A DNA stretch of 4,179 nucleotides, taken from positions 1-4,179 of IMG/VR virus record IMGVR_UViG_2663763286_000025; one strand, written 5' to 3'. Position numbers and translations under genes: made by a program. This DNA comes from a virus (taxonomy: Duplodnaviria; Heunggongvirae; Uroviricota; Caudoviricetes). Within the stretch, counting starts at the first letter, position 1, and each line of letters opens with the position of its first letter. The notes beneath the pieces are model-generated. The model did not search any database, was not told where the DNA came from, and saw only the letters and a program-made list of their open reading frames with translations. Positions 1 through 4,179 of the stretch are shown here, piece after piece.

Positions 1-117
1 ACGTGGGTGGACTGGTATAACAATCGACGATTGCTGGAAAGGCTGGGCCATATTCCTCCGGCAGAAGCAGAAAAAGCTTATTATGCTTCCATCGGAAATA
101 ATGATCTGGCAGCCTGA
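1..117 (+). mobile_element. 3' end of a DDE transposase gene (integrase-core C-terminal tail, IS3-family-like); 5' part lies outside the window
   Basis: Frame 1 is open from base 1 and translates to TWVDWYNNRRLLERLGHIPPAEAEKAYYASIGNNDLAA, stop TGA at 115-117. The W-x-x-W-Y-N-x-R-R...L-G...P-x-E pattern is the typical C-terminal tail of DDE (retroviral-integrase-like) IS transposases. The exact IS and its terminal inverted repeat cannot be determined from the window. Confidence 0.55.
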
Positions 118-421
118 GTTCACAGATAAAATACTCTCCAGGAAACCCGGGGCGGTTCATACTGCTGTCTGCCCAAATTGCTCTCATGAAGAACCCAGTG
201 AAACAGACGACATTGTTTGGTCTTACCGTTCACGGGAAACGCCAGCCACCGACGCTTTCCTGGCTGAAGTGCGGGCGCAGGCGTTTAATGACCTTTGCTC
301 GGTGTTCGTTAAGGACGCGACGGTTGTCGGGCTGGACGATGGCGACATCGTTACGGTGAAAGAAGCGACGGACGCCCTGCTGCATTGTGCGGAACAGCTT
401 CGCAAAGGAGGCAACCAGTGA
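118..421 (+). pseudogene. Possible 3' remnant of a prophage gene whose 5' part was displaced by the IS; boundaries uncertain
   Basis: The track ORF 83..421 begins inside the transposase tail, so its N-terminus is a chimera. Its distal part stays open and ends with TGA 419-421, overlapping the GTG start (418-420) of the next gene in a GTGA arrangement typical of coupled phage genes. No credible start codon with an RBS lies downstream of the transposase stop in this frame. Confidence 0.3.
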
Positions 422-1179
422 GCAAGATTGACTTTCAGGCACTGCGTGAAAAGGCAGAGAAAGCAACTAAAGGAAGCTACATCGTAGGGCATACATCTGT
501 TAACCAGCACGGCAATTTAACAGGAGTTTTTGTTTGTCAAAAATGGAAAGGAGAGCCAGGTGGCGTGATTGCAGAATGTCACGTTAACTGTCTGGTTGAA
601 ACAGATGCTCAGGCTTATGCAAACGCAGAATTCATAGCAGAGGCTAACCCAGCTACCGTACTGGCACTGCTGGATGAACGGGAAAGAAACCAGCAATACA
701 TCAAACGCCGTGACCAGGAGAACGAGGAGATTGCGCTAACGGTAGGGAAGCTGCGTGTTGAGCTTGAGGAGACAAAATCAAAACTCAACGAGCAGCGCGA
801 GTATTACGAAGGTGTTATCTCGGATGGAAGTAAGCGTATTGCTGAACTGGAGAAAAGCGAAGAGCAACTCATCAACGAGCGTGACCATGCTGAGTCTGCT
901 TTAGCTGATATGTATTTTGCAGCAACCGGGGATAGGCCTGAGTGGAGTAACTGGTTCGGTTTTTCAGATGCTGTCAATGCCGTGGTTGACAGAATTGCTG
1001 ATTTAGAAGCTAAACAGCCATCGCCAGTAGTACCGGAAGGATTGATTAAAGCAGTGCGCTTCTATGAACAGGTTAAGCGTGAAAATCCGCCAGTCGAAAC
1101 CGGAGCATGGAAAGACGCTGTTGACTGGGTGCTCAAAGAGGCTTGTCAGGCTGTAAACATTCGCATCAAAGGAGAGTGA
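418..1179 (+). CDS. Ead/Ea22-like prophage protein (253 aa) with a central coiled-coil segment
   Basis: GTG at 418 sits 6 nt after a strong Shine-Dalgarno AAAGGAGG (404-411). The N-terminus SKIDFQALREKAEKATKG and the motif AEFIAEANPATVLALLDERE are recognisable Ea22-like signatures. The central region (ERNQQYIKRRDQENEEIALTVGKLRVELEETKSKLNEQREYY...) is heptad-like and charged. The track start at 385 is TTG without an RBS and is probably an artefact. Stop TGA 1177-1179. Confidence 0.75.
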   Translation: MSKIDFQALREKAEKATKGSYIVGHTSVNQHGNLTGVFVCQKWKGEPGGVIAECHVNCLVETDAQAYANAEFIAEANPATVLALLDERERNQQYIKRRDQENEEIALTVGKLRVELEETKSKLNEQREYYEGVISDGSKRIAELEKSEEQLINERDHAESALADMYFAATGDRPEWSNWFGFSDAVNAVVDRIADLEAKQPSPVVPEGLIKAVRFYEQVKRENPPVETGAWKDAVDWVLKEACQAVNIRIKGE

Positions 1180-1180
1180 G

Positions 1181-1369
1181 ATGAACGGACAAATATCAAT
1201 TATTCGCCCTGGCGCTTGTGACGAAGAGATAAGGCTGATTATCCGCCTTGCGATGGGTAGAACAATAACTGCTCTCATTACTCCAGAAAATCTCGCATTA
1301 GCATTAACCGGAAAGTCAGACCTGCCAGTAGAGCTAAAGCTGCGAAATGTTGAGATTAAGGTGAAATAG
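1181..1369 (+). CDS. Hypothetical small prophage protein (62 aa)
   Basis: ATG at 1181 is preceded by GGAGA (1171-1175) and lies 1 nt after the upstream stop. The ORF fills the gap between two recognisable genes on the same strand with no competing frame. No family recognised. Confidence 0.55.
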   Translation: MNGQISIIRPGACDEEIRLIIRLAMGRTITALITPENLALALTGKSDLPVELKLRNVEIKVK

Positions 1370-1371
1370 CT

Positions 1372-2040
1372 ATGACCACTATTACCAAAGAATGGCTACA
1401 GAAAACGATTACCAGCATTGAGTCAGCACGGGATGAAATACCGTTCGGACTCGATGAAGATCAAAGCAACATGCTTACCGCATTTAAAATTGCACTGGCA
1501 TCACTGGAACGCGAACAGATTCGCCACGAGCATGCCAAATGGTCTGACTCCACATTTGGCTGCGTTGGCCCCATTGGTCCACTGAAACACCTATCAAAAG
1601 AGGCTCTGGAAGCCGCAGCCGAACCTGACGATCTCAGCGAGTGGGCTGATATGCAGTTCCTGTTGTGGGATGCACAGCGCCGTGCTGGTATCAGTGATGC
1701 TGAAATTACCGCTGCTATGGAAAATAAATTGAAGATCAACATGGAACGCCAGTGGCCTGAACCAAAAGATGGTGAGCCTCGCTTGCACATTAAAGAACCC
1801 GACAACTCTCCGGGAACTCCGGATAGTTGGATAAGCTGTAGTGATCGAATGCCTGAAAAGGGCCAGAACGTGCTTATTTCGGTGAATTTCGATAGCTCTC
1901 TGGTTGAACCGCTAATATGCTCCGCACGCTATACCGGAAGCACCTTTCGGCGCGGAGATGCAACGATTAAGCCGGGTAATGGTATTGAGCAAGCAACTCA
2001 CTGGATGCCGCTACCGGAACCGCCGCAGGAGGTGAAGTGA
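1372..2040 (+). CDS. DUF550 (dATP/dGTP pyrophosphohydrolase-like, MazG-type) N-terminal domain fused to a DUF551 C-terminal domain (222 aa)
   Basis: ATG at 1372 lies 2 nt after the upstream stop. The N-terminal half (HAKWSDSTFGCVGPIGPLKHLSKEALEAAAEPDDLSEWADMQFLLWDAQRRAGISDAEI) matches the phage DUF550 pyrophosphohydrolase-like domain as I recall it. The C-terminal half (WISCSDRMPEKGQNVLISVNF...ATHWMPLPEPP) matches DUF551. Stop TGA 2038-2040. Confidence 0.7.
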   Translation: MTTITKEWLQKTITSIESARDEIPFGLDEDQSNMLTAFKIALASLEREQIRHEHAKWSDSTFGCVGPIGPLKHLSKEALEAAAEPDDLSEWADMQFLLWDAQRRAGISDAEITAAMENKLKINMERQWPEPKDGEPRLHIKEPDNSPGTPDSWISCSDRMPEKGQNVLISVNFDSSLVEPLICSARYTGSTFRRGDATIKPGNGIEQATHWMPLPEPPQEVK

Positions 2041-2612
2041 TGAACAACTTAATGATCGACCTTGAGACGATGGGGAAAAATAAGGATGCACCGATCGTTT
2101 CCATTGGCGCGGTGTTCTTCACTCCAGAAACCGGAGACATCGGACAAGAATTCTATACGGTTGTTAGCCTGGAAAGTGCTATGGGGCAAGGAGCTACACC
2201 TGACGGCGATACCATCCTGTGGTGGTTGAAACAAAGCCCTGAAGCACGAGCTGCAATCTGTATTGATGATACTTTGTCGATCAGCGATGCTCTCTCAGAA
2301 CTAAATCATTTCATTAACCGGCACGCAGACAATACGAAATATTTAAAAGTCTGGGGTAACGGAGCCACCTTCGACAACGTAATTTTACGTGGAGCTTATG
2401 AGCGAGCAGGACAAATCTGCCCGTGGGCATACTGGAATGACCACGATGTACGCACGATCGTTACGCTTGGGCGTTCCATCGGATTCGACCCCAAAATGGA
2501 CATGCCTTTCGATGGCGAACGGCACAACGCCCTGGCTGATGCCCGTCATCAGGCAAAATATGTTTCCGCTATCTGGCAGAAATTAATTCCTGCCACCAGC
2601 ACAGAATTATGA
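2040..2612 (+). CDS. DnaQ-like DEDDh 3'-5' exonuclease, phage type (190 aa)
   Basis: ATG 2040-2042 overlaps the upstream TGA by one base, with AGGAGGTG at 2027-2034. The three Exo motifs are visible: MIDLET (Exo I, D and E), GNGATFDN (Exo II, D) and ERHNALADARH (Exo III, H-x4-D). The track start at GTG 2037 is an in-frame alternative. Confidence 0.75.
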   Translation: MNNLMIDLETMGKNKDAPIVSIGAVFFTPETGDIGQEFYTVVSLESAMGQGATPDGDTILWWLKQSPEARAAICIDDTLSISDALSELNHFINRHADNTKYLKVWGNGATFDNVILRGAYERAGQICPWAYWNDHDVRTIVTLGRSIGFDPKMDMPFDGERHNALADARHQAKYVSAIWQKLIPATSTEL

Positions 2613-2648
2613 TTTTCCCGGGTGCAGCCGGTTTTGATGGAGAAAATT

Positions 2649-2930
2649 ATGAACACCTTGTTTTTACTGATGGCTGAATTCAATACCTCAAACATTGAAC
2701 TCTCAGCAGTTAGCCAAAAGTACTTTGGTATGAGTCCAGCCACAGCAGAAGCAAAAGCAAACGCTTGTAAGTTGCCCGTTCCAACATATCGCATCGGCAC
2801 ATCACAAAAAGCAAAACGTTGCATCAATATTCAGGATCTTGCGGAATACATAGACAAAAGACGAGAAGAAGGACGTATCGAGTGGGAACAGGTCAGAACA
2901 GGCAAACAGAAGGGCAAAGAACATCACTAA
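2649..2930 (+). CDS. PrtN-family / excisionase-like small DNA-binding protein (93 aa)
   Basis: The N-terminus MNTLFLLMAEF and the C-terminal DLAEYIDKRREEGR resemble the pyocin-activator PrtN family found as Xis-like proteins next to prophage integrases. ATG 2649 lies 6 nt after GGAG (2639-2642). In-frame alternatives at GTG 2622 and ATG 2637 lack an RBS. Stop TAA 2928-2930. Confidence 0.65.
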   Translation: MNTLFLLMAEFNTSNIELSAVSQKYFGMSPATAEAKANACKLPVPTYRIGTSQKAKRCINIQDLAEYIDKRREEGRIEWEQVRTGKQKGKEHH

Positions 2931-2932
2931 AG

Positions 2933-2958
2933 AAAAAACCCGCCTAAAGGCGGGTTTT
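2933..2958. terminator. Rho-independent hairpin terminator, bidirectional but stronger for the minus-strand transcript
   Basis: Perfect 6-bp GC-rich stem CCCGCC (2939-2944) and GGCGGG (2949-2954) with loop TAAA. It is flanked by an A6 tract (2933-2938) and a T4 tract (2955-2958), so the minus-strand RNA ends in six U and the plus-strand RNA in four U. It lies 2 nt after the PrtN-like stop and 19 nt after the stop of the minus-strand small ORF. Confidence 0.7.
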
Positions 2959-2977
2959 CAAAAAGCACCAGCTATGA

Positions 2978-3151
2978 TCATGCTGCTTTGCGACGACGAA
3001 GCTTACCCTGCTGCTCTTTACCAGAGACAGTAGCGTGAGTGAACGCATTAGGAGCAGCCTTCATCAGAACTTCAACAGCAGCCCCCATACCTGCGAATGC
3101 TTTCATTGTGTCGAACTTAAGCTGTGGCTTAGTTGCTTTTTGATCTTCCAT
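2978..3151 (-). CDS. Small hypothetical protein (57 aa), last gene of the minus-strand cassette; not in the supplied ORF track
   Basis: Manual translation of the reverse strand gives MEDQKATKPQLKFDTMKAFAGMGAAVEVLMKAAPNAFTHATVSGKEQQGKLRRRKAA. ATG is at 3151-3149 with GGAG 6 nt upstream on the minus strand, and TGA at 2980-2978. It sits 39 nt downstream of the 139-aa gene and just upstream of the terminator. No family recognised; the C-terminus is basic. Confidence 0.4.
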   Translation of the reverse strand: MEDQKATKPQLKFDTMKAFAGMGAAVEVLMKAAPNAFTHATVSGKEQQGKLRRRKAA

Positions 3152-3190
3152 AGAAAACTCCAGAAGCTATACCGAAACAATTCCTGTTGT

Positions 3191-3610
3191 TTACTCATCA
3201 TCAATAGATGATACGCAATATTTATTTTTAAATTTAAGGTTCTTTGGCGTAACTTCATCAGATATATCAAAACCGTCCAGAATTCTATTGAATGTAGCTT
3301 CTGGCATATCATCATGAACAGAAATCTCACCCGATCGCTGCTTTCTAACCATGTTATCCACTCGCCAAATTATAGCTTCAGCGTAAACAACATAACTTGG
3401 ATGCTTGATAAAGCGATGATCACCGGAATTCAAGACGCAAGACGGATCGTGGGGGACCCCATCCTTGATACTAGAAATATTAACAACTAAAACACAATAA
3501 CAATCGTTAACGGGGTAATAAACAGGATCATTACAAATCACATGAAGATGATTGCATGGCCCAGTTGGGGCAAGCACAGTTCCTTTCCTGTATGGCTGAT
3601 AATCCGTCAT
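3191..3610 (-). CDS. Hypothetical 139-aa Cys/His-rich protein, translationally coupled to the Panacea-domain gene; candidate toxin/effector
   Basis: Its start ATG (3610-3608) overlaps the upstream stop TGA (3609-3607) in an ATGA arrangement and has no independent Shine-Dalgarno. The protein has Cys at 19, 26, 37, 39, 58 and 132 and His at 21, 23, 54, 65, 70 and 99 (for example GPCNHLHVICNDP and NDCYCV). No hydrophobic transmembrane stretch and no family I can name. Confidence 0.6.
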   Translation of the reverse strand: MTDYQPYRKGTVLAPTGPCNHLHVICNDPVYYPVNDCYCVLVVNISSIKDGVPHDPSCVLNSGDHRFIKHPSYVVYAEAIIWRVDNMVRKQRSGEISVHDDMPEATFNRILDGFDISDEVTPKNLKFKNKYCVSSIDDE

Positions 3611-4179
3611 GATAATTGCAAAGAAAATTCCTTAAGTTTCTGAGATTCTTCCATTTTGCCAATTATGCGATTAGCCTCATCCTCGCTTTTACCCTCACTG
3701 ATCAGCATTTCTTTCAGGTCTATAGGCTTACGAGAATTGCCAGGATTGTGCCACTCTGGACAAACGCTTTCTAAATGCGTCATGTTTGCGAGATCAAATC
3801 GGTTCATATGCCCATACAGAGAATAGATTTCATCTAAAATCCGGATATCTGCACGGCTCAACTCATCAAAGACCTCGTCTGCATCCATTTCCCTCGGATC
3901 TGAACGCAACAACACATCATGCCCGTTCGTCTCTATCAAGTTGTACCAGTAGTCACCAATGCCTTCAGCCTTACCACGAATCAAGTTCAGCGTATTCGAC
4001 ATGACTGGACCAAATTTCATAGAGTAAAGGCTATCTTCGCCGATCATCCTGCCATGCTTCAAAATCGACTTGCGGTTAGACAGATAGAGCAGCTTCATCA
4101 ATTTCAGATATGCCATGCGCCCACCTCGCTTAAGAAGTAGGTATGCAGCCATTTGAGCTACTTTTTCTTCGCAAAACAT
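3607..4179 (-). CDS. Panacea-domain (DUF4065, SocA/PanA-like) protein, putative antitoxin (190 aa); start codon at the window edge
   Basis: The N-terminal region AAYLLLKRGG...YLKLMKLLYLSNRKS...MKFGPVMSNTLNLIRG matches the Panacea pattern (A-x-Y-f-l ... KLxKLLY ... GPV). The ATG is the last three bases of the window (4179-4177), so the promoter, and any 5' extension, cannot be seen. Stop TGA 3609-3607. Confidence 0.7.
   Translation of the reverse strand: MFCEEKVAQMAAYLLLKRGGRMAYLKLMKLLYLSNRKSILKHGRMIGEDSLYSMKFGPVMSNTLNLIRGKAEGIGDYWYNLIETNGHDVLLRSDPREMDADEVFDELSRADIRILDEIYSLYGHMNRFDLANMTHLESVCPEWHNPGNSRKPIDLKEMLISEGKSEDEANRIIGKMEESQKLKEFSLQLS

Follow-up and report, generated by a model that had tools for sequence, protein, structure and literature searches.

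Here we describe a pair of overlapping genes at one end of a tailed-phage DNA fragment of 4,179 nucleotides (nt), positions 1 to 4,179 of the IMG/VR record IMGVR_UViG_2663763286_000025; the whole of this stretch is referred to below as the window. The first gene of the pair, panA, occupies the last 573 bases of the window on the minus strand and encodes a small protein with a Panacea domain, and its stop codon overlaps the start codon of the second gene, panT. We believe, with a probability of roughly 0.78, that the panA open reading frame (ORF) encodes the PanA antitoxin of a two-gene toxin-antitoxin (TA) module, that this module is of the T6 type of PanAT, and that it is accessory cargo at the attachment-site (att) end of a lambdoid prophage whose integration site is dusA. 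The features of the pair are as follows.

3607..4179, minus strand: panA, from the ORF list, a complete gene for a putative Panacea-domain antitoxin of 190 amino acids (aa), stop codon at 3607-3609
4081-4104, minus strand: KLMKLLYL, central helix of PanA, residues 26-33, from the sequence
4003-4011, minus strand: GPV motif of PanA, residues 57-59 (FGPV, 56-59), from the sequence
3769..4101, minus strand: SocA_Panacea profile stretch of panA, residues 27-137, from Pfam PF13274
3610..3768, minus strand: the C-terminal 53 residues of PanA (138-190), beyond the Pfam profile, from the AlphaFold model and the conservation profile
3607..3610, minus strand: ATGA in which the panA stop codon and the panT start codon overlap, pointing to translational coupling, from the sequence
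3191..3610, minus strand: panT, candidate toxin gene of 139 aa, member of PanT cluster T6, with a predicted MazF/Kid-like fold

The sequence-only reading of this DNA had placed a Panacea-domain protein at 3607-4179, with no strand given, and the profile search bears this out for the minus strand. PanA matches the Pfam model SocA_Panacea (PF13274, formerly DUF4065) over residues 27-137 with 67.9 bits (E = 1.8e-18), where the gathering cut-off is 25.7, and the match covers profile positions 1-109 of 113; this is far above chance level. RefSeq gives the same 190-aa product, encoded by identical DNA, the name 'Panacea domain-containing protein' (WP_000458583.1). The N-terminal hallmarks of the domain that had been pointed out, KLMKLLYL and FGPV, are indeed present at residues 26-33 and 56-59. 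Conservation across 71 family members is 100% for K26-L33, G57 and P58 and 97% for V59; residues 1-26 are conserved as well, and the GPV motif has been reported to be necessary for the function of V. harveyi PanA (Kurata et al. 2022, PMC8832971).

The panA ATG stands at the last base of the window, and the DNA upstream of it was taken from NZ_CP027445 (locus L001), an E. coli chromosome with 100% identity. Given that an in-frame stop lies 49 codons before the ATG in L001, with a single TTG between the two, that a GAGG lies 7 nt ahead of the ATG, and that more than 100 PanA homologues are 183-192 aa long and span 96-100% of the query, we take this ATG to be the true start. The possibility that the frame runs on upstream into a larger protein is ruled out by the stop and by the lengths of the homologues.

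The association of the two genes is strikingly constant. Scanning with the PanA alignment, one genome per species, gave 80 loci, two of which end at a contig edge just past panA and are not evaluable. A PanT-family homologue lies directly downstream of panA, on the same strand, in each of the other 78 (E from 2e-71 to 6e-11), with a gap between the genes of -4 nt in 48 loci and of -1 nt in 8. The hosts of the pair include Enterobacterales, Pseudomonas, Pasteurellaceae, Halomonas, methanotrophs, Betaproteobacteria and Mariprofundaceae (Zetaproteobacteria), and the pair is also present in metagenome-assembled genomes labelled Nitrospirales, Anaerolineae, Ignavibacteriaceae and Thermodesulfobacteriota. 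One PanA subfamily is tied here to one toxin family, unlike the partner swapping known for Panacea. Neighbourhood conservation gives no sign of an operon of more than three genes, as Kurata et al. 2022 ask of a PanAT. The earlier statement that panA is encoded first and is coupled to the 139-aa gene agrees with what we see, the two being on the same strand and sharing the ATGA at 3607-3610, and its comparison with the antitoxin-first organisation of TA systems gains from the unbroken gene order in the evaluable loci and from the validation of a T6 representative as a type II TA.

The names Panacea, for the domain, and PanA, for proteins that carry it, come from Kurata et al. 2022 (PMC8832971), who also defined 88 clusters of putative partner toxins. 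In the part of their Dataset S1 covered here, cluster T6 has entries, in 'A|T' order and with overlaps of -4 or -1, for Pantoea septica LMG 5345, Yersiniaceae bacterium 2016Iso4, Haemophilus paraphrohaemolyticus CCUG 3718, Pasteurella testudinis DSM 23072, two Rodentibacter strains, Halomonas utahensis, Proteus vulgaris and Pluralibacter gergoviae. Seven of our survey loci coincide with genomes in that part of the dataset, namely Pantoea septica (L011), Yersiniaceae 2016Iso4 (L008), H. paraphrohaemolyticus (L082), Pasteurella testudinis (L070), Rodentibacter (L060 and L065) and Halomonas utahensis (L068), and a profile of the window PanT family matches the ORF downstream of panA in all seven (E from 1.5e-67 to 2.3e-24). 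Since these loci are genomes listed under T6 in the entries covered, we assign the 139-aa protein to the T6 PanTs; the gene had previously been described as unknown, whereas it belongs to a published cluster. The same part of Dataset S1 has two E. coli entries, in clusters T1 and T3 and not in T6, and the accessions of the window proteins were not found in it; nor were T6 accessions found in the portion of the supplements of the NetFlax paper that was covered. Our literature search found no paper on the E. coli PanAT pair of the window.

What is known of T6 comes from Pseudomonas moraviensis, whose pair is one of nine PanAT pairs validated by Kurata et al. 2022 (PMC8832971). The P. moraviensis PanT, which the covered part of Dataset S1 places in T6 and marks 'TA' and 'EndoA/PemK/MazF-family RNAses', is toxic in E. 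coli, is neutralised by its PanA, co-purifies with it and specifically inhibits protein synthesis; HHpred relates it to EndoA/PemK/MazF RNases, and neither ClpXP nor Lon was necessary for neutralisation by the PanAs tested (PMC8832971). The window pair resembles the P. moraviensis pair (WP_083354365.1 / WP_083201923.1) in several ways. The two PanAs belong to the same subfamily, with the N-terminus M(I)F.E.KVAQ and a conserved PEW/GK C-terminal part; the two toxins belong to the same family and are homologous over their full length, window PanT being ~43% identical to a close Pseudomonas relative; and in both cases the antitoxin comes first, stop and start overlap, and the sizes are ~185-190 and 132-139 aa. 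When compared with a Pseudomonas locus that shares the PanA N-terminus IFSEQKVAQ, window PanA is 42% identical (E = 4e-47) and window PanT 43% (BLASTP, E = 4e-32). The setting is different, as the P. moraviensis locus is flagged 'NotPhage' in the material covered whereas the window pair lies in an enterobacterial lambdoid prophage by the att site.

By analogy with this homologue, PanA would bind PanT directly and keep it inactive, acting as a type II antitoxin independent of ClpXP and Lon, and free PanT would block translation, most likely as an endoribonuclease. In the prophage, panAT might then act in abortive infection, excluding superinfecting phages, or might stabilise the prophage itself; a role in superinfection exclusion or prophage retention would fit its setting as cargo at the att end and the presence of homologues in phages.

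For panT, the choice of start codon matters. RefSeq calls a protein of 128 aa from an internal start (WP_014640052.1, L001 8292-8678), whereas the annotation of phage Lys8385Vzw uses the 139-aa reading. As the family alignment keeps M1 and the first 11 residues, including the N-terminal PYRKGT motif, and as the ATG overlaps the panA stop, the 139-aa start is probably correct and the 128-aa start probably wrong. The AlphaFold model of PanT, built with 54 relatives, has a mean predicted local distance difference test score (pLDDT) of 90.1 and takes the form of a MazF/Kid-type barrel, within the CcdB/MazF type of fold. When this model was compared with the PDB by Foldseek, the top 50 matches were all MazF chains, with weak E-values (5e-3 and worse) and template modelling (TM) scores of 0.5-0.6. 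Weak matches of PanT to the Pfam and NCBIfam models for ICMT and DapC lay far under the cut-offs and were dismissed. An exhaustive profile search recovered 2,703 clusters at 50% identity with E <= 1e-3, 929 of them with E <= 1e-10 and nearly all of 120-150 aa; despite this large size the T6 PanT family has no Pfam or NCBIfam model.

The most conserved polar residues of PanT suggest where its active site may lie. The only residues without variation among the 71 family members are H21 (69/69) and H65 (71/71); D55 (69/71), S/T47 (70/71), S/T72 (70/71) and C58 (65/71) are nearly constant, and position 70 is H, R or K in 65 of 71; about two-thirds of the members have a 5-6-residue insertion before H21 ('DPDRKHLF') and F in place of H23. 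A zinc site made of H21, H23, C26, C58 and H65 had been considered from a narrow alignment and was dropped, as most members of the wider family have F and L instead of H23 and C26. The active-site residues of MazF are Arg29 and Thr52. We infer that the catalytic site of PanT may consist of H21 and H65 together with D55, S/T47 and S/T72, in place of the canonical Arg/Thr pair; judging by the order of secondary-structure elements and by what is generally known of MazF, H21 and S/T47 would stand roughly where MazF has Arg29 and Thr52. A conserved set of His, His, Asp and Ser points to an enzyme, the simplest candidate being a metal-independent ribonuclease, which would fit the translation block caused by the homologue. 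Compared with MazF/Kid(PemK)/EndoA (PF02452), window PanT is ~25 residues longer, with two extra C-terminal helices, it conserves His21, His65, Asp55 and Ser/Thr47 and not the MazF pair, and its partner antitoxin is a Panacea protein and not one of the MazE/AbrB type.

The AlphaFold model of PanA, built with 40 relatives, is of similarly good quality (pLDDT 92.8, predicted TM-score (pTM) 0.89). It consists of helices 4-17, 24-42, 61-67, 76-81, 100-103, 109-122, 127-134, 155-161 and 166-189 and of two small hairpins, one of which bears the GPV motif (strand 57-60) beside helix 24-42. Neither Foldseek nor sequence comparison found anything similar to PanA among solved structures. It had been proposed that the C-terminal ~70 residues, described as acidic, lie outside the core and serve as a specificity or adaptor region. 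A region beyond the profile does exist, yet it comprises 53 residues, since the profile runs to residue 137; the quoted string is present at residues 162-185, and the tail is just mildly acidic (10 D/E versus 8 K/R). In the model this part is made up of a conserved loop containing PEW (138-154), the short helix 155-161 and the long variable helix 166-189. H135 is 100% conserved in the subfamily, and past the end of the profile conservation stays strong over residues 138-165, E142, W143 and P146 reaching 100%, I153 99% and G163 94%. Only the terminal helix 166-189 is variable, with a mean pairwise distance of 0.76 versus 0.48 for the core.

We also asked whether this helix varies together with PanT. 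In a mirror-tree comparison the distances of the C-terminal helix correlate with those of PanT at r = 0.76, with a partial r of 0.47 given the core; the core itself does as much, with a partial r of 0.55, and the comparison does not tell the two apart. By inter-protein mutual information with average product correction, the top pairs join PanA S179, K183 and S186 to PanT H23, C26, V42, N44, I80 and W82, on one face of the PanT sheet, and 34 of the 100 top pairs fell inside PanA 161-190 (29 of 100 when recomputed). However, out of 200 within-clade permutations 42-79 reached the 29/100 C-terminal count and 73-182 reached the maximum score, and the summed top-20 score alone exceeded the permutations. 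A contact between the C-terminal helix and PanT was therefore set aside as a result of covariation, shared phylogeny not being separable from it. For the idea of a C-terminal specificity element there is a precedent by analogy in the PanA-Doc pair of C. doosanense, where the Panacea core is likewise followed by C-terminal helices and two of these (Phd-C) neutralise Doc (Ernits et al. 2023, PMC10440598). For direct neutralisation by the Panacea core itself, the precedents are B. choladocola and G. mesophilus (PMC10440598). The C. doosanense toxin differs in being the Doc kinase, and window PanA differs in that half of its C-terminal part is conserved and that this part is predicted to pack into one compact domain (pTM 0.89).

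Around the pair, the window represents the early-left, att-proximal arm of an E. coli/Shigella lambdoid prophage. Its other features are these.

2978..3151, minus strand: ORF of 57 aa (ORF57), PHROG match to phrog_2741 (unknown function), with its own GGAG Shine-Dalgarno sequence, 39 nt past panT
2934..2959 (L001 8060-8035), no strand assigned: strong hairpin terminator, an 11-bp stem followed by a T run, common to the prtN/xis-like gene and panA-panT-ORF57
2622-2930, plus strand: PrtN-family gene (prtN/xis-like), Pfam PF11112 (E = 1.3e-22), annotated as excisionase in phage mEp460
2037-2612, plus strand: Rv2179c-like 3'-5' exoribonuclease gene (E = 4e-75)
1372-2040, plus strand: dATP/dGTP pyrophosphohydrolase-DUF551 fusion gene, from Pfam
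First in the phage gene order, strand not given: Ead/Ea22-like gene, from Pfam
1-160 (ORF 7-117), strand not given: 3' end of an IS3-family (IS600-like) transposase gene, at the window start

The prtN/xis-like gene converges on the panA-panT-ORF57 unit, with the terminator between them serving both. It sits where xis would be expected relative to int, and 'pyocin activator PrtN family protein', as RefSeq calls it, is probably a misleading name. ORF57 is probably co-transcribed with panA and panT; as it is present in phage mEp460, which is without panAT, and a homologue was found in none of 80 related PanAT loci, we regard it as a separate phage gene outside the conserved module. Further into the window, the pyrophosphohydrolase-DUF551 and Rv2179c-like genes overlap by GTGA and form a pair for nucleotide and nucleic-acid processing of the kind usual in this phage arm. 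An ORF at 83-421 begins inside the IS3-family element; it probably represents a phage gene that the insertion has truncated. No Rfam family was found in the window.

The position of the cassette can be read from related phages and from the host chromosome. Phages Lys8385Vzw and SKA5 carry it between xis/ORF57 and int, and in Lys8385Vzw the integrase gene lies 455 bp past panA and is divergent. In L001 a 5' fragment of dusA (tRNA-dihydrouridine synthase; L001 9533-9637) lies 253 bp past the panA start; because this fragment marks the junction of prophage and host, no gene pair of the integrated prophage lies further out than panAT, and integration is at dusA. The prophage interior in the L001 strain is disrupted by IS3-family and IS600 elements. 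Phage mEp460 has xis and ORF57 in common with the window but holds the unrelated 177-aa gp23 (phrog_4350, unknown function; L083 3946-4479) where panAT sits, so that the slot between ORF57 and int, next to attP, is a variable cargo position. This slot may hold other accessory or defence genes. Window positions 2900-4179, from the xis 3' end to the panA start, are matched in 565 of 5,426 complete E. coli genomes and are at least 80% covered at 95-100% DNA identity in 205; the whole window in one piece is in no complete E. coli genome of the collection, the best reaching 79%. PanT homologues occur in 9 phage genomes, with Escherichia, Yersinia, Vibrio, Pseudomonas and Klebsiella as hosts, plus Helicobacter in one metagenome-derived phage record, and the best-scoring match to PanT is a partial protein named from Shigella flexneri.

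Several observations weigh against our interpretation of the pair as a T6-type TA module and should be considered together. No recognisable DNA-binding domain was found in PanA and no operator-like inverted repeat upstream of panA, so classical type II autoregulation is not evident; a sigma-70-like site, TTGACC-17-TAAACT (L001 9434-9406), is present ~125 nt before panA, beyond the end of the window, and is no more than chance expectation. At the level of sequence PanT is not linked to MazF: none of the 54 members gave a Pfam hit to MazF/PemK PF02452 at E <= 1, a search of the PDB with the PanT profile returned no MazF chain, and a probability of 0.1% was all that hhalign reached against a MazF profile of 33 E. 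coli-type sequences, this profile being narrow and remote homology still possible. The assignment of PanT as an RNase therefore rests on fold similarity and on the phenotype of the homologue, and PanT, with an isoelectric point of 5.6, is not basic. Toxicity and neutralisation are predicted for the E. coli/Shigella pair of the window by extension from a homologue of just ~42-43% identity, and 8 of 25 candidate PanTs were non-toxic in E. coli while 5 were not rescued by their own PanA (PMC8832971). As regards a role in defence, neither PanA nor PanT nor the 57-aa ORF had a match in PADLOC-DB v2 at E <= 0.1.

With these points in mind, other explanations of the locus have to be weighed. The sequence-only reading had likened PanA to SocA of the type VI TA system SocAB of Caulobacter crescentus, in which case PanA would hand the toxin to ClpXP for degradation with its C-terminal tail as the adaptor element. 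The two antitoxins share the same Pfam domain, the C-terminal helix of PanA is exposed enough for fast variation, and direct binding and ClpXP delivery need not exclude each other (PMC8832971). Yet the SocA equivalog model of NCBIfam (NF047745) gives PanA 13.5 bits where its cut-off is 190, and PanA is not a SocA orthologue; the partner is a protein of predicted MazF fold, unrelated to SocB; and not only do the PanAs tested neutralise without ClpXP or Lon but the T6 homologue and its PanA are found in a stable complex (PMC8832971). By this analogy direct binding would be expected for the window pair, in contrast to the ClpXP delivery of SocAB. We consequently consider a SocA-type adaptor mechanism unlikely and give it hardly any credence, and this part of the earlier comparison is not supported. 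Also very improbable is a reading in which the 139-aa protein poisons gyrase as CcdB does, or acts on the same barrel as some other binder without nuclease activity, and PanA neutralises a replication toxin; the barrel type takes in CcdB, and the homologue specifically inhibits protein synthesis. Somewhat less far-fetched, though still quite unlikely in our view, is a cassette that is passive and functionally silent in its host, either unexpressed or non-toxic, given that ~1/3 of the candidate PanTs tested were non-toxic in E. coli (PMC8832971) and that in some strains the surrounding prophage shows decay, IS600/IS3 insertions being present and an integrase being absent from the panAT end. Against a silent cassette, both ORFs are intact and have 100% protein identity in two sequenced phages, panAT is kept in the 205 complete E. 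coli genomes noted above, and all of the catalytic-candidate and GPV residues are present.

The remaining alternatives concern what the module is for and are closer to our own view. It is a real possibility, albeit one that we rate below even odds, that panAT is primarily a prophage abortive-infection system, and not simply an addiction or stress module, in which Panacea, on sensing a cue of infection, would release or activate PanT, an explanation that is compatible with a TA mechanism. The cassette occupies a variable cargo slot by attP and int of temperate phages, PanT homologues are found in the 9 phage genomes, and Panacea has been proposed as a sensor and the TA network linked to defence systems (Ernits et al. 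2023, PMC10440598). On the other hand, the PADLOC search gave no match, location by itself is no proof of function, and the literature searched held no report of phage protection by any T6 PanAT. A doubtful extension of this idea is that T6 PanT is a mechanistically distinct enzyme on a MazF-like barrel, using His21/His65, Asp55 and Ser/Thr47 on another substrate or with another chemistry, and that it serves temperate phages as an abortive-infection effector with Panacea as the infection sensor. Of the explanations considered, we favour a T6-type PanAT module carried as cargo by a dusA-integrating prophage.

The panAT pair of the window is an ordinary addition to the published T6 PanAT system and no new kind of system. 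Nonetheless, a 'hypothetical' gene next to a RefSeq Panacea protein can now be named as the toxin gene of a published and validated PanAT type, with a corrected start codon, and this gene occurs in hundreds of prophages of pathogenic E. coli (O121, O103 and further Shiga toxin-producing E. coli) and Shigella. The pair is a convenient T6 member in its native host, E. coli, for studying how a stand-alone Panacea protein neutralises a toxin of predicted MazF fold, and it is equally suited to asking what role the His-His site of PanT plays and whether PanAT cargo at the end of a prophage protects the lysogen against other phages.

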